DNA of 64,000 nucleotides from an uncultured Peptococcaceae bacterium. Lineage in GTDB: Bacteria; Bacillota; Dehalobacteriia; UBA4068; UBA4997. Of this stretch, positions 3,500-29,003 are shown piece by piece. A program made the translations under genes and the position numbers. The notes under the pieces are model-generated. The model ran no database searches. It was not told the DNA's origin and worked only from the letters and a program-made list of their open reading frames with translations. The DNA lies in the NCBI GenBank assembly GCA_947625705.1, contig CANQPG010000004.1:1484-65483 (forward strand), in the 5' to 3' direction. The first letter of the stretch is position 1, and each line of letters starts with the position of its first letter.

Positions 3500-4660
3500 T
3501 TATTCAGCCGGTTTATACGTTACCTTGACCAGGCAGTTCCCCACCTGCAAGGCATACGTGCCGGGGTCGTCAAACTCCACCTCGGTGTAAAAATACGTGC
3601 CGTCGCCCTTGGCGGCATACGTCTGCTTATCGCTGTACATCTGGGCGCTGCCGTCGGCCAGCCGGTAGACGATAACATTCTCCGTCAGGCGCTGGCTGCG
3701 GCCGCGCACCGCCAGCTTCGGCGCGGTGACGGTGGAAGCGGCGGGAAGCTCGGTGAAATACGCGCGGGAGGGAATGACCTCCGCCGTCAGATAAACGTAG
3801 GTGGTATCGGGCTGCTGATAGGCTCCGATACCGATATAGCCCGCCGAAGCGTCCAGCAAAGCAGAGCGCGTATCATCGTCGGTCAGCCATTTGGTCACGG
3901 CCTGATACACCGTTTCGGTGCGGTAATCGATTTTGGCGATAATTTCGGTAGGCTGGGGCAGCTTCAGCGCCTTGGCACGGCTGCTCAAAGTGCCGGCCGT
4001 CGGCGAATTGCTGCTGAAATAGCCGTCCTCCGCCATATCCTTGCTGTGGGCGTCGGCCATCGTGCCCAACTCGGCGGCGGTGGAGAAAGCGTCCAAATGC
4101 TTTTGCAGACGCACGCTGTTCAGCTGCTGCAATGCCTGATTGGCAATGGTCGCGGCGTCCGGTACGGTCTCCGGCGTCATGGCCGGGTCGGGCGCAGGCG
4201 CAGGCGTGGGAGTGTCCGTGGCCGGCTGACCGGAGGCTTGCGCGGCAGCGATACTGACGGTGTTATTTTCCGGCTGCCAGTTCACCGCGCAGTCAAACGC
4301 CTCGCCGATAAAGCGCAGCGGCACCAGCGTGCGGCTCTCCACCACCTGCGGCTCCACGTCCAGCGGGCGTTTTTCGCCGTTCAGCCAGGCGGCTGGCGTA
4401 TCCAGCAGCAAAACTATCTTATCATTGCCGCGATAGATATCAATGCGCCCGGAGGCGTCATAATTCACCGTGGCGGCAAGCGCCTCGGCGCAGGCTCTGA
4501 GCGGCAGCATGGTGCGGTTATTGATGACCAGCGGCGCCACGTCGGAAGAGAGCGCACTGCCGTTCACCGTGATCTGCATATCGGCGGCCAAGGCGGGCGA
4601 AGCCGAAAGCCCGGCAGCCAAAAGAAAAGCGGCCAGGCCGCGCATAAGCGTTTTTTTCAT
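3500..4660 (-). CDS. Secreted protein: copper-amine-oxidase-N-like (stalk) domain plus CAP/SCP (YkwD-like) domain
   Basis: Sec signal MKKTLMRGLAAFLLAAGLSASPALA. The N-terminal region reads NGSAL..APLVINNRTMLPLR. The CAP-like motif AHSKDMAEDGYFSSNSPTAG is present. Confidence 0.75.
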   Translation of the reverse strand: MKKTLMRGLAAFLLAAGLSASPALAADMQITVNGSALSSDVAPLVINNRTMLPLRACAEALAATVNYDASGRIDIYRGNDKIVLLLDTPAAWLNGEKRPLDVEPQVVESRTLVPLRFIGEAFDCAVNWQPENNTVSIAAAQASGQPATDTPTPAPAPDPAMTPETVPDAATIANQALQQLNSVRLQKHLDAFSTAAELGTMADAHSKDMAEDGYFSSNSPTAGTLSSRAKALKLPQPTEIIAKIDYRTETVYQAVTKWLTDDDTRSALLDASAGYIGIGAYQQPDTTYVYLTAEVIPSRAYFTELPAASTVTAPKLAVRGRSQRLTENVIVYRLADGSAQMYSDKQTYAAKGDGTYFYTEVEFDDPGTYALQVGNCLVKVTYKPAE

Positions 4661-4930
4661 AATATTATGACCTCGTTTAGTTTATTATAAAATATGCGAT
4701 TTTATCAGCAGTATAATTTCTACAAAATTAGCCCAAATCCTCTTTTGGCGGGGAGACTGCCTGTTATTTTTTGCCGCCGGCCGGCGGCGCATAAGCGGCG
4801 GCTTTCCCGCGAAAAATAGCGGTATACGGCAGAAAAGGCCACATATCGAGGCCGGCGCCGGTCTAAAAAAATTTGCTGCCGCGCCGCTGCCGTTTTATGA
4901 TATATTTTGTGGATTTTGGAGGCCAGGTAT

Positions 4931-5269
4931 ATGGATACGAACAAGGAAAACGATTTGATGAAGAAGCTGGAGCAGTCCGTGCCGGGCGGCGATGCCGGTT
5001 ATCTGCCGGACGGCAGGCCGCTTCAGCCGGGGCTTCCCAGCCAAACGGTGAACCCGCCCACGGCCAGCGGCGGCAACGGCAGCTCGCAGGCGAGGAAGCC
5101 CGCGATAAACAACGACGCGCCGCGGGCGGCATATACGGCGGGCATGGCTGCATACGGCAGCCAGCCGGGCGATATTGCAAACGTCACCCCGGAGCTGGTG
5201 AACCGCATTGAGATGTATGGTGCGGAAGCGGTATATAACGCCGGGGACGAAAATCAGGGCAACCGCTGA
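4931..5269 (+). CDS. Hypothetical low-complexity protein (112 aa)
   Basis: GGAGG RBS 8 nt upstream of the ATG (MDTNKEND...). The sequence is Pro/Gly/Ala-rich. I do not recognise a domain. Confidence 0.4.
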   Translation: MDTNKENDLMKKLEQSVPGGDAGYLPDGRPLQPGLPSQTVNPPTASGGNGSSQARKPAINNDAPRAAYTAGMAAYGSQPGDIANVTPELVNRIEMYGAEAVYNAGDENQGNR

Positions 5270-5292
5270 ACCGGAAACAAAACTCTAACGAA

Positions 5293-5330
5293 AAAGGCTC
5301 CCCCTTGCCGCACGGCAGGCGGGAGCCTTT
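5293..5330. terminator. Bidirectional terminator between convergent genes
   Basis: AAAGGCTCCCCCTTGCCGCACGGCAGGCGGGAGCCTTT: a GC-rich stem flanked by A and T runs. Confidence 0.6.
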
Positions 5331-5364
5331 AATATTCGGTTTATATTTCGGTGGTAAATTATGT

Positions 5365-6279
5365 TCACAGCTTTTGCAGATCGTAGGGCGTGGTCTGGTA
5401 GACGTAATAGTTCAGCCAGTTGGTGAACAGCAGCTGGCCGTGCGCCCGCCAGCGGTTGACGGGCTTCTGCGCCGGGTCGTCGCCGGGGAAGTAATTGAAC
5501 GGCACCTTAACGTCCATACCTTTGCCGAGATCGCGGAAGTATTCGTCGCGCAGGGTGTAAAGGTCGTATTCCGAATGGCCGCTGACGAAAAACTGCTTGT
5601 TGTCATGGTCGCTGACGATGTGGATACCGGCCTGCGGCGAGACGGACAAAATGCGCAGCTGCGGCACCTTGGCGATGGCCTCCGGGTCGGATTCGGTGTG
5701 GCGGGAATGGGGCGCAAAATATTCCTCGTCGAAGCCGCGGAACAGGCGCGCCTTGGGGTTCAGCATATAGTGGCTGTACACACCGGAAAGCTTGCCGGGC
5801 AGCTGGCGCTTCGGCACGCCGTAGTGATAATAAAGCCCGGCCTGCGACGCCCAGCAGATGTGCATGGTGCTGTGGGCGTGGGTTTTTGTCCACTCCATGA
5901 TACGGCAAAGCTCCGCCCAGTATTCCACCTCCTCAAACGCCATGTTCTCCACCGGCGCGCCGGTGATGATCACGCCGTCGAAGTTTTCGTCCAGAATATC
6001 GTCCACCGTGCGGTAAAAGGCGGAAAGGTGTTCCTCCGACGTATTCTTGGCGGCATAGCTTTTGGTGTGGATCAGCTGTACTTCAATTTGCAGCGGCGTG
6101 TTGGCCAGGCAGCGCAAAATCTGCGTTTCGGTGGCAATTTTGGTGGGCATCAGGTTCACCAGGGCAATTTTCAGCGGGCGGATATCCTGCGTGAGAGCCC
6201 GGGTCTCCGTCATCACGAAGATATGCTCGCTCTCCAGAATGGGGCGGGCGGGCAGATCGTTGGGTATCTTAATTGGCAT
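5365..6279 (-). CDS. metA: Homoserine O-acyltransferase MetA
   Basis: 304 aa, [11 protein letters not shown]... with [27 protein letters not shown] (active-site Cys region) and PHSRHTE. GGAGG RBS. Only the C-terminal third of the 906-aa track ORF is real. Confidence 0.92.
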
Positions 6280-6319
6280 AGGGCATGCCTCCTTAAAAAA
6301 ACTAAAAATATAATTTCTT

Positions 6320-6348
6320 ATCATAATATAAATGACGCAGTTTGTCAA
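6320..6348 (-). promoter_or_regulatory. Putative sigma-A promoter of metA
   Basis: On the minus strand: TTGACA, 17 nt, TATGAT. The leader is only about 35 nt, so there is no room for an S-box. Confidence 0.5.
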
Positions 6349-6358
6349 ACAAAATGGC

Positions 6359-6387
6359 TTGCAATTAAAAAATTTCTCTGTTATGAT
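6359..6387 (+). promoter_or_regulatory. Putative sigma-A promoter of the ABC exporter operon
   Basis: TTGCAA, 17 nt, TATGAT, about 35 nt upstream of the ATG at 6424. Confidence 0.5.
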
Positions 6388-6423
6388 AGCCGATAAAGAA
6401 TGATGTTGGGAGAGTGATAGCAG

Positions 6424-8172: not shown

Positions 8173-10018
8173 AGGCTTTGCCCGCCCAAGCGATATGCGG
8201 GGTACGCTCAGCAGGCTGCTGAAATACCTGGCGCCGCAGAAGCTGCGCCTGCTGCTGGTGGCGCCGGCGATCTTGTTATCCTCCGCCGCCGCCGTGGCCG
8301 GGAGTTATTTTCTGAAGCCGCTGTTCAATGATTACGTGGTGCCGTTTATCGGGCAGGCAAACCCCGATTTATCAGGCTTTATCCGGCTGATCGCGCTGAT
8401 GGCCGGCATATATCTCGCCGGCGCGGCGGCCACCTACGCTTATAACCGCCTGATGGTGGTGGTGGCTACCCAAACGCTGGCGACGATCCGCAAGGATATG
8501 TTCGCGCATATGCAGAAGCTGCCGCTGGCGTTCTTTGACAAGCACCCGCACGGCGAGCTGATGAGCCGCTACACCAGCGACACCGACGCGCTGCATGACG
8601 CGCTTTCGATGGCGCTGCCCTCGCTGCTTTCCTGCTCGGTGACCATTATCGGCGTGTTTGGCGCCATGCTGATTTTAAGCCCGCCGCTGACGCTGCTGAT
8701 CCTGCTGATGCTGGGCGTAATGTTCCTCTCCGTGAAGCTGATCGGCAAAAAAAGCTCGCATTATTTCCAGCAGCAGCAGCAGGCGATCGGCCGCGTGAAC
8801 GGTTATATTGAGGAAATGATCGAGGGGCAGAAAGTGGTGCGCGTGTTCGGGCATGAAGGGGCGACCGAGCAGGAATTTGCCGCGCTGAACGACGCTCTCT
8901 GCCACGCCTCCACCAACGCCCACACGTTTGCCAATATCCTGATGCCGGTGATCGGCAATCTTTCCTATGTTAATTACGCGCTGACGGCGGTTTTGGGCGC
9001 GGTGCTGGGCGTGGGCGGGCTGATCGACCTGGGCACGCTGGCTTCGTTTTTGCAGTTCACCCGTCAGTTCTCCCAGCCGATCGCGCAGATATCGCAGCAG
9101 TTCAACAACGTGCTGCTGGCGCTGGCCGGGGCGGAGCGTATCTTTGCCATTTTGGACGAAGAACCGGAAAGCGACGCGGGCGATGTAACGCTCGTCCGGG
9201 CGGAAAAGGGCGCGGACAGCGCCTGGCAGGAAGCGCCGCAGGGGAGCCACTGGCTGTGGAAAAAGGGCGGAGCCTACACCGAGGTTCGGGGTGACGTGCG
9301 GCTGCAAAACGTGGTGTTTGGCTATGTACCGGAAAAGACGGTGCTGCACGGCGTCAGCTTCTATGCCAAGCCCGGCCAGAAAATCGCGCTGGTGGGCAGC
9401 ACGGGCGCGGGCAAAACCACGATAACCAACCTGATCAACCGCTTCTATGACATTGACGAGGGGCAGATTTTATACGACGGCATTGACGTTAAGGACATCA
9501 AAAAGCCCGATCTGCGGCGCTCAATGGCGTTCGTTTTGCAGGACAGCCACCTGTTCAGCGGCACGATCCGCGAGAATATCCGCTATGGCCGCCCGGACGC
9601 CTCTGACGCCGAGGTGGAAGCGGCGGCCAGGCTCGCCAACGCCGATGTGTTTATCCGCCACCTGGCGCACGGCTATGAAACGTTTATCTCAGGCGACGGC
9701 GGCAACCTATCGCAGGGGCAGCGCCAGCTTTTGACGATCGCCCGGGCGGCGCTGGCCGATACCCCCGTGCTGGTGATGGACGAGGCCACCAGCTCCGTCG
9801 ATACGCGGACGGAGCGGCTGATCGAAAAGGGTATGGATCGGCTGATGGAAAACCGCACCGTTTTTGTGATCGCGCACCGGCTTTCCACCGTCAGAAACGC
9901 CAACGCCATTTTGGTGCTGGAGGGCGGCCAAGTGGTGGAGCGCGGCGACCACGACGAGCTGCTGGCGCAGCGGGGACGTTACTATCAGCTTTATAACGGC
10001 CTGTTTGAGCTGGAATAA
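8156..10018 (+). CDS. ABC exporter permease/ATPase half-transporter, consensus-site partner
   Basis: The start MPRRNKG overlaps the upstream stop by 17 nt. Walker [10 protein letters not shown], signature LSQGQRQL, and Walker [13 protein letters not shown]. Confidence 0.9.
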
Positions 10019-10034
10019 AAAACGCCAAAAAATA

Positions 10035-10065
10035 AAAGCGGCAGGCTTAAACAGCTTGCCGCTTT
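10035..10065. terminator. Bidirectional terminator
   Basis: AAAGCGGCAGGC-TTAAAC-AGCTTGCCGCTTT lies between the convergent ABC gene and the small membrane ORF. Confidence 0.6.
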
Positions 10066-13309: not shown

Positions 13310-15504
13310 TGCTGGCCGGGGTCGTCATCAACAAAAAAACGGCGGCCTTAAACCGCCTGTTTTACTATGCCGTGCCGCCGGGCTGGGAGCTTTTGCCCGG
13401 GCAGATCGTGCGGGTGGAATTCGGCAAACAGAAGCTGGAAGCCGTGGTGGTGGAGCTGGCGGCGGACGGCGCGTATCCGGCGGAAAAATTGAAGCCGCTG
13501 CTTGACATTGTCAATGCGAAGCCGCTGTTCGGCGAAGATCTGCTGCGGCTTTCCGAATTTGCCGCCGATTATTATCTTTGCAGCCGCGCCAGCGTTTTGC
13601 AGGCCATGCTGCCCAGCGGCATGATGCTGACCGGCAAAATGCCGCGCGCCCAAATCAGCCGCCGGGTGCGGCTGAATGACCCGAAAATCATTCCGCACGG
13701 CATGAAGCAGCGCCGGGTGGCGGCCATTCTGCGCGAACAGGGCGAAATGCCGCTTCAGGAGCTGCTGCGGGAGGCGGAAGCCAACATATCAGCTGTGCGC
13801 GCCCTGGCCAAGCAGGGCATAGTCACGATAATCGAAGAAGAGATCTGGGAGGGCGCGGAGCTTGCCCCGCTTCCGGAAACGCGGGAATTATCGCCCCGGC
13901 AGCAGCAAGTTCTGGCCGAGATACGGCAGAATTTTCAAACGGAAAATAAGCCCGTGCTGCTGCACGGCGCGACCGGCAGCGGCAAAACGGAAATATACCT
14001 GCGGCTGGCCGAAGACCAACGCGCCCAAGGCCAGCAGACCATCATATTAGTACCGGAGATCGCGCTGACCCCGCAGACGGTGCGCGTCTTCCGCGAACGT
14101 TTGGGCGGCGGTGTGGCGGTGCTTCATTCCGGGCTTTCGGCGGCGGAGAGGCGGGCGGCCTGGCTGGGGATCGCCTCCGGTCATTATGACCTGATCATCG
14201 GGGCGCGCTCGGCCATTTTTGCCCCCGCGCCCAATTTGGGGCTGATCGTGATCGACGAGGAGCACGAGGCCACCTATAAGCAGGACAATGCACCGCGTTT
14301 CCACACCCGCACGCTGGCCGAGGAGCGCTGCCGCCTGACTGGGGCGGGGCTGGTGCTGGGCAGCGCCACCCCCGACGTCACCAGCTATTATAAAGCGCAG
14401 CAGGGCGAATACCGGCTCTGCGAGCTGCCGGAGCGCATTTTCGGCCGCCCGGCGGCCAAGGTGCGTCTGGTGGATATGAGCCGGGAGTTCCGCGAGGGCA
14501 ACAACAGCGTGTTCAGCCGCCTGCTGCAAAAAAAGCTGACGGAAAACTGGCAGGCGGGGCGGCAAAGCCTGCTGTTCCTGAACCGCCGGGGCTATGAGTC
14601 TTTCGTCTCCTGCCGCAGCTGCGGCTATGTGGTCGAGTGCCCGCACTGCTCGGTGGCGATGTCTTATCACGCGGGCGAAAACGTGCTGAAATGCCATTAC
14701 TGCGGCCAGACGCTGCGCCCGCCCAAGGTCTGCCCGTCCTGCGGTTCGTCTGCTATCCGCTATTTCGGCGCCGGCACACAGAAGATCGTCGAGGCGGCGG
14801 CAGAGCTGCTGCCCGAAGCGCGTATCGCCCGGCTGGATCGGGATTCCACCGCCGAGCGGGGCAGTTACGAGCGCGTCTATCGCGCCATGCTGGCCGGGGA
14901 TATTGATATCCTCGTCGGCACGCAGATGATCGCCAAGGGGCTGGATTTTCCCAATCTGACGCTGGTGGGCGTGGTGGCGGCGGACTTAACGCTGAACCTG
15001 CCCGATCTCCGAAGCGGTGAGCGCGCCTTTCAGCTGACCACGCAGGTGGCGGGGCGCGCCGGGCGGCACCAGGCGGGCGAGGTCATCGTGCAGACGTATC
15101 AGCCGCAGTCGGAGATATTAAAGGCGGCGGCGGGCGAGGATTATCAGGCGTTTTACCGCCGGGAAATATTGCAGCGGCAGCTGGCGGAATACCCACCGTT
15201 CGCCGCGCTTATCCGCATTGTGATCAGCGCGGGAACTTTGCCGGCGGCGCTGGATATCGGCCAAAAGCTGGCATATTTGCTCCAGCAGGCGGTGGAGGAT
15301 ATGCAGGCCGGGGATAAAATGCGTTATTTCGGCCCCAAACCCTGCCCCCGCGCCAAGATCAAAGACCGCTTTCGTCTACAGATCATGCTGAAAGGCAGGG
15401 ATTTAGACCTGCTGCGCGAGGCGGCCAGACGCGCCACGGCTGATTTTCGCCTGCCGCACGACGCGAACCTGGCGGTGGACGTGGAGCCGCTGAATATAAT
15501 CTGA
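13309..15504 (+). CDS. priA: Primosomal protein N' (replication restart helicase PriA)
   Basis: Walker A GATGSGKTE, DEEH box VIDEEHE, and a Cys-rich zinc region CRSCGYVVECPHC...CHYCG...CPSCGS. The ATG shares 1 nt with the adh stop. Confidence 0.93.
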   Translation: MLAGVVINKKTAALNRLFYYAVPPGWELLPGQIVRVEFGKQKLEAVVVELAADGAYPAEKLKPLLDIVNAKPLFGEDLLRLSEFAADYYLCSRASVLQAMLPSGMMLTGKMPRAQISRRVRLNDPKIIPHGMKQRRVAAILREQGEMPLQELLREAEANISAVRALAKQGIVTIIEEEIWEGAELAPLPETRELSPRQQQVLAEIRQNFQTENKPVLLHGATGSGKTEIYLRLAEDQRAQGQQTIILVPEIALTPQTVRVFRERLGGGVAVLHSGLSAAERRAAWLGIASGHYDLIIGARSAIFAPAPNLGLIVIDEEHEATYKQDNAPRFHTRTLAEERCRLTGAGLVLGSATPDVTSYYKAQQGEYRLCELPERIFGRPAAKVRLVDMSREFREGNNSVFSRLLQKKLTENWQAGRQSLLFLNRRGYESFVSCRSCGYVVECPHCSVAMSYHAGENVLKCHYCGQTLRPPKVCPSCGSSAIRYFGAGTQKIVEAAAELLPEARIARLDRDSTAERGSYERVYRAMLAGDIDILVGTQMIAKGLDFPNLTLVGVVAADLTLNLPDLRSGERAFQLTTQVAGRAGRHQAGEVIVQTYQPQSEILKAAAGEDYQAFYRREILQRQLAEYPPFAALIRIVISAGTLPAALDIGQKLAYLLQQAVEDMQAGDKMRYFGPKPCPRAKIKDRFRLQIMLKGRDLDLLREAARRATADFRLPHDANLAVDVEPLNII

Positions 15505-19589: not shown

Positions 19590-19665
19590 GCTGGCATAGC
19601 TCAGTTGGTAGAGCAGCTGATTCGTAATCAGCAGGTCGTGTGTTCAAGTCACATTGCCAGCTCCA
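19590..19665 (+). tRNA. tRNA-Thr (anticodon CGT)
   Basis: GCTGGCATAGCTCAGTTGGTAGAGCAGCTGATTCGTAATCAGCAGGTCGTGTGTTCAAGTCACATTGCCAGCTCCA. The acceptor stem is 7 bp, the anticodon loop is TTCGTAA, and CCA is encoded. Confidence 0.9.
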
Positions 19666-19733: not shown

Positions 19734-19762
19734 TTGACATTTTGCGCCAAAACAGGTATGCT
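19734..19762 (+). promoter_or_regulatory. Sigma-A promoter of the riboswitch-led B12 operon
   Basis: TTGACA, 17 nt, TATGCT. Confidence 0.55.
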
Positions 19763-19794
19763 TTAAGCGTGATTGAATTTCATATCTGCTCCGA

Positions 19795-20045
19795 CTTTTG
19801 TGGCACATACGCGACCCGGCGGTTTTGATACCGTTGGACACGTATTCTTGTTCCCGCTGAACAAGGGAATCGGGTGAAAATCCCGAACAGGTTTCGGCTG
19901 CTTGGCGGCTGATTCACTAGCTGTGAGTGTGGAGCGCCCTTACTTAAAGCGAAAGCTGACCACTGGCGGCTGTAATGGCTTGACCGGGAAGGTTGTATCG
20001 GCGCGTGGGCACCTGCCTGAACACACAAGTCAGAAGACCTACGAA
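19795..20045 (+). promoter_or_regulatory. Cobalamin (B12) riboswitch aptamer; boundaries approximate
   Basis: Hallmark strings: GGGAATCGGGTGAAAATCCC (19865-19884), GACCACTGG (19958-19966), GGGAAGG (19986-19992) and the B12-box-like AGTCAGAAGACCT (20028-20040). I could not run a covariance model. Confidence 0.8.
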
Positions 20046-20090
20046 AGGGCTTTGATACATATCAAAACTTCTATGCAGGGAACACAAGAG

Positions 20091-20114
20091 CGGTGCGGCA
20101 AGCGCCGTTTTTTT
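20091..20114 (+). terminator. Riboswitch expression-platform terminator
   Basis: CGGTGC-GGCAA-GCGCCG hairpin followed by TTTTTTT. It lies about 50 nt upstream of the ATG at 20168. Confidence 0.65.
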
Positions 20115-20167
20115 ATTGCAGAAAAAAACGGCGGCAACGAGGGTATCAAACAGGGAGGTAACAAAAC

Positions 20168-21847
20168 ATGAAAAGGAATTTCCAGTTGGTATGCAGTCTG
20201 CTGCTGGTATGTACGCTGTTGTTCGGCCTGTGCAGCACGGCTTTGGCGGCCAGCACCGACGAGCTGCAAAAGGCCATGGACGACACGGCCAAGTACACCT
20301 ACGAGACGGTGAAAAGCCCGCAGGTCGGCTCGATCGGCGGCGAATGGGCAGTGATCGGTCTGGCACGCAGCGGATACAGCGTGCCGGAGCAATACTATCA
20401 GGACTATATCAAGACGGTGGAAAAATATGTAACTGACTGCAAGGGCGTGCTGCATGATAAGAAATACACCGAATACAGCCGCGTTATCGTGGCGCTGGCC
20501 GCCCTCGGCCAGGACGCGCGCGATGTGGCGGGTTATGATCTGACACTGCCGCTGGGCGATTACGAGAAGACCATCTGGCAGGGGTTGAACGGCCCCATCT
20601 GGGCGCTGATTGCACTGGACACCCGCGATTATCCCATGCCGCAGAACAAAGACGCCACAACGCAGGCCACCCGCCAGATGTATGTTGACCGCATTTTGGC
20701 CTGCCAGCTGACCGACGGCGGCTGGAGCCTGACCGGCGGCACCTCGGCGGCTACCAAGGATACCACGTCCGACCCGGATATCACCGGCATGGCATTGCAG
20801 GCGCTGGCCAATTATCAGGATCAGCCCAAGGTCAAAGAAGCCATCAACAAGGCGCTGGACTGCATGAGCAAGCAGCAGAGCGAGGACGGCGGCTTTGCCA
20901 GCTGGGGCGAGAAGAATTCCGAAAGCTGCGTGCAGATGGCAGTGGCGCTGGCGACGCTGGGGATTTCGCAGGACGACGCGCGTTTTGTCAAAAACGGCCA
21001 CAGCATTTTGGACGCACTGCTGACCTTCTATACGCCGGGCAAGGGCTTTATCCATGTTGAAGACGGCGGCGGCAACAGCCTGATGTCCACCGAACAGGGC
21101 TTGTATGCGCTGGCGGCGGTAAACCGTGCCAACGCCAAGCAGAACGCGCTCTATGACATGAGCGACGCCAAGGTCATCAAGGCGGCGGAACAGACCGATA
21201 AAACGGATAAGCCCGCCGGCAATGACGCCATCAATACCAAACCGATCACCAAGCCGGGCGCCACTTTCCCGGATATTACCGATAGCCCCAACAAGGCGGC
21301 CATCGAAGCGTTGGCCGCGCGGGAAATTATCAACGGGGACACGGCGGCAGACGGCAGTATGGCTTTCCGCCCGAACGACAATATTACGCGGGCAGAATTT
21401 GCGGCTATCGTGGTGCGGGCGCTGGGGCTTGAAACCGCTGCCAGCGGCGTGTTTACTGATGTTCCGGCGGGCGCCTGGTATGCGGCCTACGTTGATACCG
21501 CCAATAAGTATGGTATCGTTAACGGCACAACGGCGACCACCTTTGAGCCGAACAGCAAAATTACCCGTCAGGAGGCGGCGGCGATGGCGGCGCGCGCGGC
21601 GGGGCTTTGCGGTATGGAGAACAAGCTGGATACGGCGGCGATCAGAGATATTCTGGCGGGCTTCGGCGATTATGTGAAGCTGGCGGATTATGCCAAAGCG
21701 CCGATGGCTTTTTGCCTGACCAACAGCCTGCTGGATAAGGTCATCGACGATATGGATATTCAGCTTTTGCCTGCCGCCAACATTACGCGGGCGGAGATGG
21801 CTCAAATAATTTATAACCTGCTGGCGGTCACAAAACTACTGTATTGA
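20168..21847 (+). CDS. Secreted alpha/alpha-toroid (prenyltransferase/terpene-cyclase-like repeat) protein with C-terminal SLH domains; candidate surface corrinoid-binding alpha-domain protein
   Basis: Signal peptide ...CSTALA. Repeated motifs CQLTDGGWSL, QQSEDGGFASWG and HVEDGGGNS. SLH repeats are FPDITDSPNKAAIEALA.. and FTDVPAGAWYAAYVD... It is the first gene after the B12 riboswitch. Confidence 0.8.
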   Translation: MKRNFQLVCSLLLVCTLLFGLCSTALAASTDELQKAMDDTAKYTYETVKSPQVGSIGGEWAVIGLARSGYSVPEQYYQDYIKTVEKYVTDCKGVLHDKKYTEYSRVIVALAALGQDARDVAGYDLTLPLGDYEKTIWQGLNGPIWALIALDTRDYPMPQNKDATTQATRQMYVDRILACQLTDGGWSLTGGTSAATKDTTSDPDITGMALQALANYQDQPKVKEAINKALDCMSKQQSEDGGFASWGEKNSESCVQMAVALATLGISQDDARFVKNGHSILDALLTFYTPGKGFIHVEDGGGNSLMSTEQGLYALAAVNRANAKQNALYDMSDAKVIKAAEQTDKTDKPAGNDAINTKPITKPGATFPDITDSPNKAAIEALAAREIINGDTAADGSMAFRPNDNITRAEFAAIVVRALGLETAASGVFTDVPAGAWYAAYVDTANKYGIVNGTTATTFEPNSKITRQEAAAMAARAAGLCGMENKLDTAAIRDILAGFGDYVKLADYAKAPMAFCLTNSLLDKVIDDMDIQLLPAANITRAEMAQIIYNLLAVTKLLY

Positions 21848-21856
21848 GGAAATATT

Positions 21857-22759
21857 ATGTGGCAAAAGCATAAAACGAAAATAATCGCCATATGCGCGGT
21901 GCTGATCGTGCTGGCTGGAGCTTTCTGGTATGGCGGCAGCGCGCCGGGGCTGCAGGGCTGGACGGCGGCGGACAACACCAAAACCGATAACCCCGTGACC
22001 GCGCCCGACCCCGCCCAAGCTACCCAGACGGCGGAGCAGAACGGCAAGACGCAGCAGGCGGAGCAGGGCGAGCCCCAGGAACAGGATAAGCCTGACGACG
22101 CCACTGCCAAGCCCGAGCAGCCCGCGGCAAAGCCGCAAGATAATTTGACGCCGGCGGAAAAAGTTGCCGCGGCGGCGGAAATTGCCGGGGCTGCCGGCCA
22201 GGCGGCGCCGGGCAGCGAGAGCTACTCCAAGGAGCAGGGTATGCAGATCGACCCGGCCACCGGCAAAGACCAATATAACACCGACCCCGTACCGGAGGGC
22301 AAACCCCTGCCGGTGGAGCCAGAAAACGCCGTCATCACCGACGAGGCGTATACCTGCACCATGTCTATCTCCTGCGCCAGCATTTTAGAGCATATGGACT
22401 GGCTGGCCGACGGCAAGGCCGAGCTGGTACCGGAGGACGGCGTGATCCTTGCGCCGACGGAAGTGACTTTTTACGGCGGCGAAAGCGTGTTCAACGTATT
22501 GCAGCGCGTCTGCAAGCAGAACAAGATACATATGGAATTTATGAACACGCCGATGTATAACTCCGCCTACATCGAGGGTATCCACAACCTCTATGAGTTT
22601 GACTGCGGCGAGCTTTCCGGTTGGATGTACAGCGTGAACGACTGGTTCCCCAACTACGGCTGCTCGCGCTATCAGCTCTCTGACGGCGACGTTATCTGCT
22701 GGGAATATACCTGTGACCTCGGCGTGGACGTGAACGGCTTCTACTCCACCGGGGCATAA
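21857..22759 (+). CDS. Membrane-tethered DUF4430 domain protein (transcobalamin beta-domain-like)
   Basis: N-terminal TM segment (IIAICAVLIVLAGAFWY), then a spacer of about 110 aa rich in P/Q/A/E. The C-terminal domain contains GESVFNVLQ...SGWMYSVNDWFPNYGCSRYQLSDGDVICWEYT. Confidence 0.78.
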   Translation: MWQKHKTKIIAICAVLIVLAGAFWYGGSAPGLQGWTAADNTKTDNPVTAPDPAQATQTAEQNGKTQQAEQGEPQEQDKPDDATAKPEQPAAKPQDNLTPAEKVAAAAEIAGAAGQAAPGSESYSKEQGMQIDPATGKDQYNTDPVPEGKPLPVEPENAVITDEAYTCTMSISCASILEHMDWLADGKAELVPEDGVILAPTEVTFYGGESVFNVLQRVCKQNKIHMEFMNTPMYNSAYIEGIHNLYEFDCGELSGWMYSVNDWFPNYGCSRYQLSDGDVICWEYTCDLGVDVNGFYSTGA

Positions 22760-22773
22760 AAGGGGCGAGGCTT

Positions 22774-23685
22774 ATGGCAAACCGCGATACGTTTTCCGGC
22801 CTGCACCCGCTGGTAAACTTTCTCTATTTTGGGCTGGTGCTGTTGTTCGGTATGTGCTTCATGCACCCGGCCTGCCTGATAATCTCGCTGGCCTCCGCCG
22901 TGGCGTATAATATCTATCTGAACGGGCGGCGGGCGGTGCGCTTTCAGCTGATGTTCGTGCTGCCCATGCTGCTGCTGGCGGCGGTTCTGAACCCGGCTTT
23001 CAACCATCAGGGCGCAACGATATTGACTTATCTGCCCAGCGGTAACCCGCTGACGCTGGAAAGTATCTTATACGGTCTGGCGGCGGCGGTCATGCTCTGC
23101 GCAGTGGTGACGTGGTTTGGCTGCTATAACGCGGTGATGACGTCGGACAAGTTTGTCTACCTGTTTGGCCGGGTGATACCGGCGCTGTCGCTGGTGTTAT
23201 CCATGACGCTCAGGTTCGTGCCCAAATTCACGGCGCAGCTTAAAGTGGTGACGGAAGCGCAGCAATGTATCGGCCGCAGCACCAGCGACGGCACGCTTTT
23301 GCAGCGGCTGAAAAACGCCGTCACCATCACGTCGATCATGCTGACCTGGGCGCTGGAAAACGCCATCGAAACGGCGGACAGCATGAAAAGCCGCGGCTAT
23401 GGTCTCCCCGGGCGCACGGCCTTTTCCATCTATCGCTTTGACGACCGCGACCGGGCGGCGCTTCTGTGGCTGGGTTTCTGCGGCTTTTTCATCTGCTGCG
23501 GCTGGCTGGCGGGCGGCGTCAGCTTCCGCTATTATCCCACGGTAGTCTGCGCCCCGGCCACGCCGCTGAATATCTGCTTTTTCGCGGTGTATCTGGCGCT
23601 GTGCCTGACGCCGCTGCTGCTGAATATCAAGGAAGATCTGGTGTGGACGAAGCTGCGCCGGGAGGGGAGTGAAGCCAATGTCTGA
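22774..23685 (+). CDS. ecfT: ECF transporter transmembrane (T) component, CbiQ/EcfT family
   Basis: 303-aa polytopic protein with the C-terminal coupling-helix region ALENAIETADSMKSRGYG. Confidence 0.82.
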   Translation: MANRDTFSGLHPLVNFLYFGLVLLFGMCFMHPACLIISLASAVAYNIYLNGRRAVRFQLMFVLPMLLLAAVLNPAFNHQGATILTYLPSGNPLTLESILYGLAAAVMLCAVVTWFGCYNAVMTSDKFVYLFGRVIPALSLVLSMTLRFVPKFTAQLKVVTEAQQCIGRSTSDGTLLQRLKNAVTITSIMLTWALENAIETADSMKSRGYGLPGRTAFSIYRFDDRDRAALLWLGFCGFFICCGWLAGGVSFRYYPTVVCAPATPLNICFFAVYLALCLTPLLLNIKEDLVWTKLRREGSEANV

Positions 23686-24220
23686 ACACGCATATACGGT
23701 GGAGAATTTGCAGGCCGGCGTTCCCGTGGCGGAATATATCGCCGAGTGTGTGGACGTGCCGAAATTCCTCGCCTATTGCAAGGAGTGCCGCTGCTATAAC
23801 CACCGCTGGCCGTGCCCGCCGTTTGATTTTGAGCCGCTGGCGCTTTGGCAGAAGTATGAAACGCTTCAGCTCTATACACGGGTTTTAACACCCGCGCCCG
23901 GCGCGGATATGAACGACATGATGCAGGGCATGAAGCGGGAAAAAGACCGCCTGCTTGCGGAGCTGCTGCGGCTGGAGAACGAGACGCCGGGGTCGCTGGC
24001 GCTTTCCGCCGGTTCCTGCTATATCTGCGGCGACAACTGCACCCGCCCGCAGGGCGAACCATGCCGCTTCCCGGCAAAAACGCGTCATTCGATCGAATCG
24101 CTGGGCGGCGACGTCAGCAAAACGCTGGAAAAATACCTGCATAAGCCAATGCTTTGGATAAAAAACGGCGAAATGCCCGCTTATCTGACGCTGACCGGCG
24201 GCCTGCTGCTGCCAAAATAA
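23678..24220 (+). CDS. Cys-rich predicted metal-binding protein (DUF2284-like)
   Basis: 180 aa with CKECRCYNHRWPCPPF and CYICGDNCTRPQGEPCRF. The start overlaps the ecfT stop by 8 nt. The family assignment is from memory. Confidence 0.6.
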   Translation: MSEHAYTVENLQAGVPVAEYIAECVDVPKFLAYCKECRCYNHRWPCPPFDFEPLALWQKYETLQLYTRVLTPAPGADMNDMMQGMKREKDRLLAELLRLENETPGSLALSAGSCYICGDNCTRPQGEPCRFPAKTRHSIESLGGDVSKTLEKYLHKPMLWIKNGEMPAYLTLTGGLLLPK

Positions 24221-24241: not shown

Positions 24242-26887
24242 ATGCCACTGTTTGAAATACGCAATTTCGCCTTTACTTATCCCGAACAACTGACCCCCGC
24301 GCTGCAAAACGTGAACCTCACGGTGCAGGCGGGGGAATTTCTGGTGCTGTGCGGCCCCTCCGGCTGCGGCAAAAGCACGCTGCTGCGGCAGCTGAAAACC
24401 GTGCTGGCGCCGCACGGCGTAAAAGGCGGCGATATCTTATTCGAGGGTCAGCCGCTTTCTGAGGTTGACCGCCGGGTGCAAAGCCAACGCATTGGCTTTG
24501 TGCTGCAAAGCCCGGAAAATCAGATCGTGACCGACAAGGTGTGGCATGAGCTGGCGTTCGGGCTGGAAAGCCTCGGTTATGACACGCCCACCATTCGCCG
24601 CCGCGTGGCTGAGACGGCGTCGTTCTTCGGTATCCAGAACTGGTTTTACAAGAACGTCACCGAGCTTTCCGGTGGGCAGAAGCAGCTGCTGAATTTGGCG
24701 TCGGTGATGGCATTGCAGCCAAGCGTGCTGATATTGGACGAGCCGACCAGCCAGCTTGACCCCATTGCCGCAACGGATTTCCTCGCGACCCTGGCCAAGA
24801 TCAACCGGGAGCTGGGTATCACTGTGATACTGACAGAACACCGGCTGGAGGAGGCGTTTCCGCTGGCCAACCGGGTGGCGGTGATGGACAAGGGCAGTAT
24901 CATCTGCACCGGCACGCCCCAGGAAGTGGGGCTGGCGCTGAAAGCAAGCGGCCACGGCATGTTTCTGGCTATGCCGACGGCCATGCGCGTTTGGGCGGCA
25001 ACCCCCGACGCCGGCACGGTCTGCCCGATCACCGTGCGGGAGGGGCATGACTGGCTGGACGCCTATGCCGCGAGCCATACATTGCAGCCGCTGCCGCCTG
25101 CGCCGCGTTACACTTATCCCGACGAAAAAATGATCGAACTGAACGACGTTTGGTTCAAATATGATAAAGACCTGCCGGACGTGGTGAAAGGGCTTTCGCT
25201 TTCAGTCGCAAAGGGCGAATTCCTGGCGCTGCTGGGCGGCAACGGCACCGGCAAAACCACCAGCCTGAAGCTGGCCGCGGGGCTGAATAAGCCGTATCGC
25301 GGCGAGGTGAAGCTAAACGGCACGGTGGGCATGCTGCCGCAGAACCCGCAGACGCTGTTTGTCAAGAAAACCGTGCGCGAGGACTTGTTTGAAATTTTCC
25401 GCGGCACGGGTATCCCCAGGGCGAAGCAGGAGGAAAAAGCGGCGCGGCTGGTCAAGCTCTGCCGGCTGGAGGAGCTGCTCGACCGGCACCCATACGACCT
25501 CTCCGGCGGCGAGCAGCAGCGGGCGGCGCTGGCCAAGGTGCTGCTGCAGGAGCCGCAGATATTGCTGCTGGACGAGCCGACCAAGGGGCTGGACGCGGAA
25601 TTTCACGTCTGCTTTGCCGAGATTTTGCGGGCATTGCTGGCCAGCGGCGTAACCATTTTAATGGTCAGCCACGACATCGAGTTCTGCGCCCGCTACGCGC
25701 ACCGCTGCGCGCTTTTCTTCGACGGCAACATCGTGAACGCCGCCGCCCCGCGCGAGTTTTTCTCCGGTAACAACTTTTACACCACCTCCGCCAACCGCAT
25801 GGCGCGCCACCTGCTGCCGCAGGCCACCACGCCGAACGACGTGATCGCCGCCTGCGGGGGTGAAATGCCGCCGGTGGAGGGCTTGCCAAAGGATTTTGAA
25901 CCGCTGCCGCCGCCGGAGGAGCACAGCGCTGACTGGCAGCCGCCGAAGCTGCCCTTATGGCGGCGTCTGGTGGCTTGGGCAACGGGGCTGGCCGCCGTGG
26001 TCATGTTCCTGAAGATCATGGGCGTGACGGATCTGACACAGCTGGTGGGCGAGGGCGGCGCGACGGCTCTCGCCGAAAATTATATGGCGTTTTACCTGGT
26101 TTTCATCGCCGATCTGCTGGTGTTCGCGCTGGCTATCGGCCGCCGCGGCACGCCGCCGGTGCAGGTGCAGACGCCGCGGGAAAAGCGCCGGCTGACCCGA
26201 CGCACGCTGGTGGCGACGGTGCTGATTTTGCTGCTGATACCGCTGACGCTGTTTGTCGGCGAGGTGTATCTGGCTAACCGCAAATATTATTTCATCTCGC
26301 TGCTGATTTTGCTGGAATGTATGCTGCCGTTCTTCCTGATTTTTGAGGGGAAAAAGCCGCAGGCGCGCGAGCTGGTGATCATCGCGGTGCTTTGCGCCAT
26401 CGCGGTGGCCGGGCGGGCGGCGTTCTTTATGCTGCCGGAATTTAAGCCGGTGGTGGCAATGACGATCATCGCGGGCATTGCATTCGGCGGCGAAACGGGC
26501 TTTCTGGTTGGCGCGATGACCATGCTGGCCTCTAACGTCCTGTTCTCGCAGGGCACCTGGACGCCCTGGCAGATGTTTGCCATGGGTATCATCGGCTTCC
26601 TCGCGGGGATATTGTTCCGCAAGGGGTGGCTGCGGCGCACGCGCGGCAGTATGTGCGTGTTCGGCGCGGTGGTCTCCATCGTCATCTACGGCGGCATTAT
26701 GAACCCGGCCAGCGCGCTGGTTTGGAGCCATGAGCTGAACTGGCACATGCTGCTGACGTATTACGTGACGGGCTTCCCGCTGGACTGCGTGCGGGCGGCG
26801 GGCACCTGGTTCTTCCTCTGGTTCGGCGGCGAGGCGATGCTGGAAAAACTTGACCGGATCAAAACGAAATACGGCCTGGTGGAATAA
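24242..26887 (+). CDS. ECF transporter fusion: duplicated ATPase (EcfA-EcfA') plus C-terminal multi-TM S-component-like domain
   Basis: Two ABC cassettes: [28 protein letters not shown] and [28 protein letters not shown]. They are followed by about 300 hydrophobic residues (about 10 predicted TM) ending in an S-component-like region ([30 protein letters not shown]). Confidence 0.82.
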
Positions 26888-26891
26888 CCGG

Positions 26892-26939
26892 GCATAAGAA
26901 AACGGCGGCCTCCGCGTAGGGGGTCGCCGTTACTTATGC
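26892..26939. terminator. Bidirectional terminator between convergent genes
   Basis: A long imperfect inverted repeat: GCATAAGAAAACGGCGGCC...GGTCGCCGTTACTTATGC. Confidence 0.6.
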
Positions 26940-27825: not shown

Positions 27826-28806
27826 TCAGCAGGCCAGCCCCAGCGCCCGGCGCTGCTGCCGCACCAGCGCAAGCTTCGCTGCCGCGTTCGGCGCGGCCAG
27901 CTCATGCACCAAATATTGGGGGGATATCTCTGCCAGAACGTCGGCAAATGCGCCGGTTTGGCAGGCCTCATGCCGGTCGATCTGCAATATGTGATAATAC
28001 GCCTGATTGAACTGCTGATAAACGTCTCCCGCAGGGAGCGGCAGGGGGTTCTGCAGAAAGCCGCGCACAAAAGCACCGGATAAGGAACGGTGCAGGTGAA
28101 CGCCCCTGATATAGCGGCAAAGCTCGCCGTGCTCCTTTAAGCGGCGGCGAATATAGCGGGCGGCGTCGGCCTCGTCTTGAAGCGTTAAGTCCGTGCACAT
28201 CAAATGGCCGAAATCGAGCAGCAAGCCCTTTTTGGGGTAATGCACATTAGCGAGCAGGCGCTCCGTCAGCTTATAATCGGTGAAGCGCAGCCCCGGCCAC
28301 GGCAGGTTTTCCATCAGAAAATCAAACTGATAATCCTCGCCGTCCAGCATGGCGTTGATAAATTCCGCTGCGGCTTCAATGATCTCCGCGTCGGTGTGCC
28401 GCCACTTGTATGTGTATGTCTCGGCAAACGAAACGTCGGAAACGTGAAAGACGACGTATTGCGCCCCGGCCTTTTCCGCCCGCCGCAGATCGGCCTTAAA
28501 CTGCGCCAGCAGACCCTCATTATCTGCCGCCTGATAAAACTCCTGCCAGACGGCGGGCGAGCCGAATTTCTCAGCGAGCGCCTTTTCGTCCCGCCGCCAG
28601 AAATCCAGCCAGTCGGTATAAAACATCAAATGATAGCCCGGCGTAATGCCCTCGGGAAAGCCCGCAAGTCTCCCGGTGCCGCCGTATATTATCTCCAGCC
28701 CGGCGCAGCCGCTCTCGTTAAGCCAGGCGGCAAGCCCCGTGGCGCTGCCGCCGAACCAGCTTTGCCACGTCTGCTGCTCATAAGCCAGATTGATCAGCTC
28801 CTGCAT
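27826..28806 (-). CDS. Xylose-isomerase-like TIM-barrel protein (sugar phosphate isomerase/epimerase family), substrate unknown
   Basis: 326 aa starting MQELINL with a GGAGAA RBS. Motifs typical of the AP_endonuc_2 fold: YVVFHVSD, FLMENLP, DFGHL. Confidence 0.6.
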   Translation of the reverse strand: MQELINLAYEQQTWQSWFGGSATGLAAWLNESGCAGLEIIYGGTGRLAGFPEGITPGYHLMFYTDWLDFWRRDEKALAEKFGSPAVWQEFYQAADNEGLLAQFKADLRRAEKAGAQYVVFHVSDVSFAETYTYKWRHTDAEIIEAAAEFINAMLDGEDYQFDFLMENLPWPGLRFTDYKLTERLLANVHYPKKGLLLDFGHLMCTDLTLQDEADAARYIRRRLKEHGELCRYIRGVHLHRSLSGAFVRGFLQNPLPLPAGDVYQQFNQAYYHILQIDRHEACQTGAFADVLAEISPQYLVHELAAPNAAAKLALVRQQRRALGLAC

Positions 28807-29003
28807 AGCAATTCTCCGTTTCGTCAAAATCTTTTTACCTATTGTAACACATATTGGCGGCAAATTCATCAGCTATCCGCAATTTACTGTATCTTGTGGC
28901 GAAAATGGGGTAAATTTTGAGATTTTCCGCATATCTGGCAGGGATAAGCGGGCGGGCGGCGAATTTATTTAATTTGGAATTTTGTCGCAAAGGAGGCGGC
29001 GGC

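Follow-up and report, generated by a model that had tools for sequence, protein, structure and literature searches.

A cobalamin riboswitch-preceded operon for predicted surface capture and ECF-type import of corrinoids in an uncultured Peptococcaceae bacterium

Introduction

Many gut Firmicutes need vitamin B12 and must compete for it, and capture of corrinoids outside the membrane of a Gram-positive bacterium remains without experimental demonstration in the literature searched. Here, we analysed a stretch of 64,000 nucleotides (the window) of contig CANQPG010000004.1 from an uncultured Peptococcaceae bacterium (assembly GCA_947625705.1), in which an earlier note had described a cobalamin riboswitch followed by genes for two surface proteins that resemble a transcobalamin split into two chains. 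The riboswitch was found to precede an operon that encodes these two proteins, a cysteine-rich cytoplasmic protein and the components of an energy-coupling factor (ECF) importer, and that has relatives in many Firmicutes. This operon of a Gram-positive anaerobe probably serves to scavenge corrinoids at the cell surface and to feed them into ECF-type import.

Results and discussion

Organisation of the locus

The features of the locus, all on the forward strand, are as follows; the open reading frames (ORFs) of the two surface proteins are named ORF1 and ORF2.

19734..19762, +, sigma-70-type promoter-like site TTGACA-17-TATGCT, matching at 10 of 12 positions
19831..20060, +, cobalamin riboswitch aptamer RF00174, from the Rfam covariance model
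20087..20115, +, intrinsic-terminator-like hairpin with a T7 run, from a stem/loop search and fold z-score
20168..21847, +, ORF1, 559 aa: signal peptide 1-27, alpha/alpha toroid approximately 28-340, SLH region approximately 364-559
21857..22759, +, ORF2, 300 aa: membrane anchor 5-30, spacer 35-150, DUF4430/transcobalamin-like SLBB beta-grasp domain approximately 164-286
22774..23685, +, EcfT (CbiQ family), transmembrane coupling component, PF02361 with 28.1 bits against a cut-off of 25
23669..24220, +, DUF2284, Cys-rich predicted metal-binding cytoplasmic protein, PF10050 with E 2.4e-21
24242..26887, +, 881-aa fusion of EcfA and EcfA' ATPases, four transmembrane helices and a CbrT-like S component, from Pfam, NCBIfam and transmembrane prediction
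26901..26931, +, strong hairpin of 13 pairs at the operon end, from a stem search

The aptamer at 19831-20060 is the sole cobalamin riboswitch in the window. It scored 47.3 bits with the Rfam model RF00174 (gathering score 31.5, E 9.8e-9), the alignment covering model positions 1-189 of 189, and an independent nhmmer profile placed the same riboswitch at 19840-20052 (E 1e-22). The terminator-like element begins 27 nt 3' of the aptamer; its hairpin (approximately 20087-20111) has a 10-bp stem and a 5-nt loop, runs into T7 at 20108-20115 and gave a z-score of -2.9 against shuffled sequences. Judged from this arrangement, hairpin and T-run are likely the expression platform of an OFF switch, the usual form of a transcription-terminating riboswitch. 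A near-consensus promoter, a cobalamin riboswitch and a hairpin-T7 terminator were what the earlier note had read in this leader, and each of them held up; the leader, given there as about 250 nt long, measures approximately 400 nt between the -10 box and the start codon of ORF1 (ATG at 20168), with 230 nt taken up by the aptamer alone, and this length was the sole imprecise detail of the description. Just 5' of the promoter-like site lies a tRNA gene (19590-19662), and ilv genes are also found upstream.

The five genes 3' of the riboswitch follow each other with spacings of 9, 14, -17 and 21 nt, the genes of EcfT and DUF2284 overlapping by 17 nt, which points to one transcript.

Two surface proteins that resemble a split transcobalamin

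In animals, transcobalamin, intrinsic factor and haptocorrin sandwich cobalamin between an alpha6/alpha6 toroid and a beta-grasp domain. At the locus studied here, the counterparts of these two halves are encoded by separate ORFs (20168-21847 and 21857-22759), as had been stated before.

The N-terminus of ORF1 is hydrophobic and has a cleavable-looking Sec signal peptide that ends ALA/AS (the slash marks the cleavage site). The C-terminal part matched SLH (PF00395) in two stretches with 87.1 bits (gathering 20.8, E 7.6e-25), and in a search of PDB sequences this region matched Sap of Bacillus anthracis (E 2.8e-11) and SbsB. In the region in between, the motif Q-x-x-DGG-W/F occurs twice, at residues 180 and 236. 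Modelled with AlphaFold2, residues 28-350 came out all-helical, with a predicted local distance difference test score (pLDDT) of 91 and a predicted template modelling score of 0.91, and the best fold match of this model in the PDB was transcobalamin (4zrp_A, E 6.9e-5, TM 0.53-0.56; Foldseek). The modelled fold is an alpha/alpha toroid that superimposes on the transcobalamin alpha domain; taken alone, this fold is not specific for transcobalamin. Across the family, many toroid residues are invariant (W33, R40, R78, D104, Q111, N114, Y128, R142, D177, E225, Q229 and H269 in domain numbering), and this conservation of polar and aromatic side chains suggests a ligand site. At approximately 200-206, in a register set by eye, ORF1 reads S-D-P-D-I-T-G, so the DxDD motif of class II cyclases is absent; of this site, only D-[IMV]-T-[GA] is conserved across the toroid family.

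ORF2 begins with a hydrophobic membrane anchor (residues 5-30), followed by a spacer of 116 aa of which 52% are Pro, Gln, Ala or Glu. DUF4430 (PF14478) was found at residues 208-285 with 70 bits (gathering 23.8, E 2.4e-19; Pfam). The AlphaFold2 model of residues 149-300 had a pLDDT of 82, and each of its 17 best fold matches in the PDB was the beta domain of a transcobalamin, an intrinsic factor or a haptocorrin (E 2e-6 to 1e-4; Foldseek); the 18th was RUMGNA_00854 of Ruminococcus gnavus, a stand-alone DUF4430 protein. In the model, strands 78-83 and 88-94 form a beta-hairpin directly after the core helix 63-73. Such a hairpin after the core helix is the defining feature of the transcobalamin-like SLBB clade of Burroughs et al. 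(2007, Biol Direct 2:4). By its score with the hidden Markov model and by the hairpin of the predicted fold, the domain of ORF2 is a member of this DUF4430/transcobalamin-like SLBB clade.

When ORF1 and its family profile were searched against PDB sequences, SLH proteins were the only matches and no transcobalamin, intrinsic factor or haptocorrin was found, and the same search with ORF2 and its family profile gave nothing meaningful; the link of both proteins to transcobalamin is therefore visible only at the level of the fold.

The signal peptide, the Q-x-x-DGG-W/F motifs and the SLH repeats that the earlier note had seen in the first protein were thus all recovered, as were the anchor, the spacer of about 110 aa rich in Pro, Gln, Ala and Glu and the DUF4430 domain of the second, together with the relation of DUF4430 to the transcobalamin beta domain. 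The computational checks that it proposed all turned out in favour of its reading, two of them with a limit. The ORF1 toroid does have transcobalamin as top match, but other toroid families match it equally well; and of the Pfam families named, DUF4430 and SLH passed their cut-offs, whereas Cobalamin_bind (PF01122) was not matched and the Prenyltrans and SQHop_cyclase families stayed below theirs.

A lipoprotein anchor was also considered for ORF1 and ORF2 and was rejected, because a lipobox Cys in a suitable context is missing from both. Within the DUF4430 domain (window approximately 22355-22714), C19, C25, C121 and C138 of the 152-residue query are invariant in 44 close homologues. The four might pair up in two disulfides or supply a cobalt ligand, as is the case in BtuM.

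The ECF importer

The importer encoded downstream, which had been noticed before, comprises EcfT and the 881-aa fusion protein. The ATPases of the fusion matched TIGR04520 with 338 bits (cut-off 315); they are followed by four extra transmembrane helices (approximately 575-704) and then by a six-helix S domain (approximately 706-878). The only PDB sequence matched by the S domain was 6fnp_A (CbrT), with E 8e-7 over residues 7-177 of 182; generic ECF S families of Pfam also matched. ECF-CbrT of Lactobacillus delbrueckii takes up cobalamin and cobinamide, for which its S component CbrT is specific, and this transport is not competed by hemin (Santos et al. 2018, eLife; PDB 6FNP). Together, EcfT, the ECF ATPases and the CbrT homologue support the prediction of an ECF importer for cobalamin and cobinamide. 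Both this system and that of L. delbrueckii are ECF-type importers with homologous S domains, but CbrT of L. delbrueckii is a solitary S component on a shared ECF module, whereas the S domain found here is fused to dedicated ATPases via the four transmembrane helices, and its transporter is accompanied by two surface proteins.

In every related locus checked, ATPases and S domain share a single reading frame. Models that have S components leave the ECF module and take turns on it do not easily accommodate an S component tethered covalently in this way.

Conservation of the operon

A scan of one genome per species gave 80 related loci, and gene order was counted only in those with enough sequence downstream of the toroid-SLH gene. 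The loci span Oscillospiraceae, Sedimentibacter, Pelotomaculum, Candidatus Formimonas, Paenibacillus, Cohnella, Paratissierella, Anaerovoracaceae, Vallitaleaceae and others; the closest relatives are Oscillospiraceae, and the operon family is present in the cultivable Flavonifractor, Intestinimonas, Neglectibacter and Paenibacillus. A gene for DUF4430 comes after that for the toroid in 70 of 75 loci; further on, EcfT is encoded in 62 of 71 and a CbrT-like S domain in 45 of 53. Upstream on the same strand, a cobalamin riboswitch was found in 48 of the 80 loci, in 27 of these at a distance of at most 600 nt from the toroid gene, and Rfam confirmed the riboswitch in all eight loci tested. Riboswitch control of toroid-DUF4430-ECF operons is thus frequent, not universal. 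The co-occurrence of the protein pair with B12 riboswitches across Firmicutes, for which the earlier note had suggested a survey, is borne out by these counts.

The domains themselves are widespread: more than 5,000 close relatives were found for the toroid domain, for which 5,868 clusters at 50% identity exist, and more than 6,700 for DUF4430. Toroid and DUF4430 are fused in one polypeptide in 85 of 150 family representatives. Directly 5' of the toroid-SLH gene, 30 of the 80 loci have a second surface-protein gene that encodes at least one DUF4430 domain and SLH and whose product can exceed 2,000 aa; in 12 loci this product carries one or more toroid domains as well, and where a riboswitch was found in loci with this gene, it precedes the gene. 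Examples are:

L047, 642-7817
L049, 1679-7870
L058, 3685-7926
L073, 4371-7841

The operon in the window is without such a gene and has the tRNA and ilv genes in its place. Upstream of the toroid gene of locus L077 lie a small ORF with a PF04071 'cysteine-rich small domain' and a tRNA gene, the tRNA being as in the window. Two or three toroids are contained in some proteins in the databases, the longest with 3,573 aa; part of these may be run-on gene calls.

Comparison with known systems

The literature searched on these proteins consists of a sequence analysis from 2007 and a study from 2019 that argues for heme. Burroughs, Balaji, Iyer and Aravind (2007, Biol Direct 2:4) describe bacterial transcobalamin-like SLBB surface proteins that are often fused to an alpha/alpha toroid and are encoded together with a second paralogue and with genes for a CbiO-like ATPase and a CbiQ-like membrane protein, in genomes that usually are without key enzymes of B12 biosynthesis. 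From this, scavenging of B12 or its precursors and a bacterial origin of animal transcobalamin were predicted there. ORF2 is like those proteins, which now are DUF4430 (PF14478): it passes the PF14478 cut-off and has the predicted fold. In contrast to the fusions described, toroid and beta-grasp domain are on two chains here, one anchored to the wall by SLH and the other to the membrane by a helix; neither riboswitch control nor SLH anchoring is mentioned in the available part of that paper.

Verplaetse et al. (2019, bioRxiv 10.1101/864751) describe lsa1836-1840 of Lactobacillus sakei, which encode an ECF S component, fused A-A' ATPases, EcfT, the separate secreted protein Lsa1839 and the likewise separate protein Lsa1840. 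HHpred matched Lsa1839 to the beta domain and Lsa1840 to the alpha domain of transcobalamin; an extracellular heterodimer of the two, for heme, was proposed, and both were docked with heme (bioRxiv 10.1101/864751). Going by this published description, the gene content is the same as in the window, but the S component of L. sakei is separate and that of the window is fused to the ATPases, and neither an SLH anchor nor a riboswitch is reported in the accessible text. Across the available parts of both papers, an SLH wall anchor with a membrane-tethered partner, the frequency of riboswitch control and the four-helix fusion of ATPases and S component are not reported.

With scavenging predicted in 2007 and a split pair beside an ECF transporter described in 2019, the novelty of the arrangement had been overestimated in the earlier note. 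The locus is a typical member of an arrangement common in Firmicutes that was predicted earlier, and it holds no new principle.

In the fold searches, animal transcobalamin, intrinsic factor and haptocorrin (PF01122) came out best for ORF2, and transcobalamin headed the matches of ORF1. Each of these animal proteins is one soluble chain, whereas the pair in the window is encoded by two ORFs, has no PF01122 match and shows 13-16% identity in the fold alignments.

The job proposed for the pair is analogous to that of BtuG and other surface B12-binding lipoproteins of Bacteroides, which capture B12 with high affinity at the surface ahead of a transporter and are under riboswitch control. BtuG has an unrelated beta-propeller fold and works in an outer-membrane setting with a TonB-dependent transporter. 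The analogy is one of job and implies no homology.

Proposed function and alternative explanations

A role in corrinoid scavenging is favoured because of the riboswitch, the CbrT-like S domain, the fold matches, the conserved gene order, the fusions in 85 of 150 representatives and the cobamide genes inside the operon of a related locus (L010, see below); moreover, corrinoid scavenging by such proteins was predicted independently by Burroughs et al. (2007, Biol Direct 2:4). As far as computation allows, the interpretation given in the earlier note is supported, and the observation behind it is confirmed.

The system would most likely work as follows. With cobalamin plentiful, the aptamer would bind it, and hairpin and T-run would stop transcription before ORF1; with cobalamin scarce, the five genes would be transcribed together. 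ORF1 would then be exported, its signal peptide removed and the protein fixed to the wall by the SLH region, so that the toroid is displayed, while ORF2 would be held in the membrane by its N-terminal helix and would present the transcobalamin-beta-like domain on a flexible spacer of approximately 115 residues. One or both domains may bind free extracellular corrinoid, perhaps clamped between them as in transcobalamin, and may pass it to the CbrT-like S domain that is fused to the two ATPases. Finally, the fusion protein and EcfT would import the corrinoid at the expense of ATP.

Several findings weigh against a corrinoid system of this kind. For no bacterial member has corrinoid binding or transport been shown in the literature searched, most subscription journals lying outside that search, and deletion of the homologous operon of L. 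sakei is reported to affect heme uptake (bioRxiv 10.1101/864751). Cobalamin_bind (PF01122) was matched by neither ORF1 nor ORF2 in Pfam, even at E<=10. The sequence of the ORF1 toroid resembles the repeats of prenyltransferases and squalene cyclases (Pfam and NCBIfam), with all scores below the cut-offs (26.3, 21.1 and 16.6 bits for PF00432, PF13243 and PF13249, with gathering values of 26.5, 26.1 and 26.2), and in Foldseek ent-copalyl and drimenyl diphosphate synthases, MstE, beta subunits of prenyltransferases, UGL and GH88/GH105 scored as well as transcobalamin. No fewer than 20 related loci with the same order of genes were without a cobalamin riboswitch when the Rfam gathering score was applied, and in two of them, L077 (7300-8050) and L011 (7000-8050), none was found even at E<=1 within 0.6-1 kb upstream. 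The upstream regions of the loci without riboswitch share no conserved motif. Most of these loci have a further gene for an SLH protein immediately 5' of the toroid gene, so that the operon may in fact begin at a greater distance.

These findings bear on three alternatives. According to the first, the DUF4430 protein binds corrinoid alone and the toroid-SLH protein is a scaffold, an adhesin or a binder of some other ligand, without any clamp. The generic fold of the toroid, which is without the Cobalamin_bind signature, would fit this, and so would DUF4430 domains that occur on their own, one of which is seen in the crystal structure 3u7z. The isolated beta domain of human transcobalamin, too, is reported to bind cobalamin alone. 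However, the toroid and DUF4430 genes are neighbours in all but five of 75 loci, more than half of the representatives (85 of 150) have the two domains fused, and the many family-invariant polar and aromatic residues of the toroid suggest a ligand site; we regard a DUF4430 protein working alone as unlikely.

The second alternative is import of heme or another tetrapyrrole in place of corrinoids. Its basis is the L. sakei operon lsa1836-1840, deletion and complementation of which altered heme uptake (bioRxiv 10.1101/864751), and a quarter of the related loci have no detectable cobalamin riboswitch. Against it stand the cobalamin riboswitch at the window locus and at 48 of 80 relatives, the S domain like that of CbrT, for whose transport hemin is no competitor, and the cobT, cobU, cobS and cobC-like genes inside the L010 operon; besides, the docking of heme to the L. 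sakei proteins was purely in silico. Because of the riboswitch, the CbrT-like S domain and the L010 genes, heme is an improbable substrate at the window locus.

The third, that the toroid is an extracellular enzyme like terpene cyclases, prenyltransferases or glycoside hydrolases whose transcription with a B12 importer is incidental, draws on the weak matches to Prenyltrans, SQHop_cyclase and squalene cyclases, on the fold matches to drimenyl-diphosphate synthase, MstE and UGL and on the conserved D-[IMV]-T-[GA], which recalls the DxDDTA motif of class II cyclases, but is very hard to credit since every family match is below its curated cut-off, ORF1 reads DPDIT at the acid motif, isoprenoid diphosphates would not be expected as substrates in the extracellular space, and linkage or fusion to DUF4430 and ECF genes as well as riboswitch control are systematic.

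Corrinoid scavenging by the two surface proteins thus stays the preferred explanation. If one of them does bind corrinoid, it would be the first surface B12 binder of a Gram-positive bacterium, would be relevant to how gut bacteria compete for B12 and would favour an origin of transcobalamin in bacteria. Since the proteins are small and soluble once trimmed, the prediction is easily testable.

DUF2284 and a neighbouring TIM-barrel protein

Approximately 1 kb 3' of the operon, on the opposite strand, lies one further gene that is linked to it by comparative genomics only:

27826..28869, -, PF01261 TIM-barrel protein (xylose-isomerase-like/AP endonuclease 2), 41.3 bits against 31.1

Homologues of this protein are encoded in eight of the 80 related loci. 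Seven of these genes, in Flavonifractor, Pseudoflavonifractor, Intestinimonas and others, are placed between EcfT and the ATPase gene; L008 has two tandem copies, and the copy of L049 (11332-12324), also in this position, is 44% identical to that of the window. In L010, the TIM-barrel gene (9073-10044) is located inside the operon directly 5' of cobT, cobU, cobS and a cobC-like gene. The eighth is found in L037, where a separate upstream cobalamin riboswitch (4077-4220) is followed by the TIM-barrel gene (4760-5812) and a DUF2284 gene (5796-6389). DUF2284 is encoded in only three of the 80 loci, and within the operon only in the window and its closest relatives (e.g. L005, 11551-12096). A search against PDB sequences found no relative of DUF2284, and none of DUF2284, the TIM-barrel protein, ORF1, ORF2 and EcfT received an informative name in an NCBIfam scan.

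CbiR of Akkermansia, a cobamide-remodelling phosphodiesterase that needs reducing, anoxic and metal-dependent conditions, belongs to the same PF01261 superfamily, and CbiR genes usually adjoin cobamide genes and sometimes transporter genes. The TIM-barrel protein resembles CbiR in that it is a PF01261 member which, in related loci, is encoded beside cobamide genes. Going by family and gene neighbourhood, it is possibly a CbiR-like cobamide-remodelling enzyme, perhaps with DUF2284 as partner.

A more far-reaching proposal can be put forward only tentatively, as one that we hold to be possible rather than probable. Toroid and DUF4430 would form a two-chain transcobalamin-like clamp that catches corrinoid inside the cell wall and delivers it to an ATPase-tethered CbrT. 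Such a system would correspond, in Gram-positive bacteria, to BtuG-BtuB and would be a present-day relative of the protein from which the animal B12 carriers descend, and DUF2284 and the TIM-barrel protein might be a novel cytoplasmic module for processing or remodelling of cobamides.

Additional RNA elements in related loci

Three or four cobalamin riboswitches on the same strand within 17 kb were found in L016 (887-1077, 2516-2705 and 6817-7008), L020, L022, L024, L037 and L065. Since some of these are found 3' of the ECF operon, units regulated by B12 may be clustered there. L040 and L043 have a second riboswitch just upstream of the operon, in the opposite orientation. Just past the ECF operon of L011, a c-di-GMP-I riboswitch and a pemK RNA motif were detected (14115-14200 and 14768-14848), which are probably unrelated to the operon.

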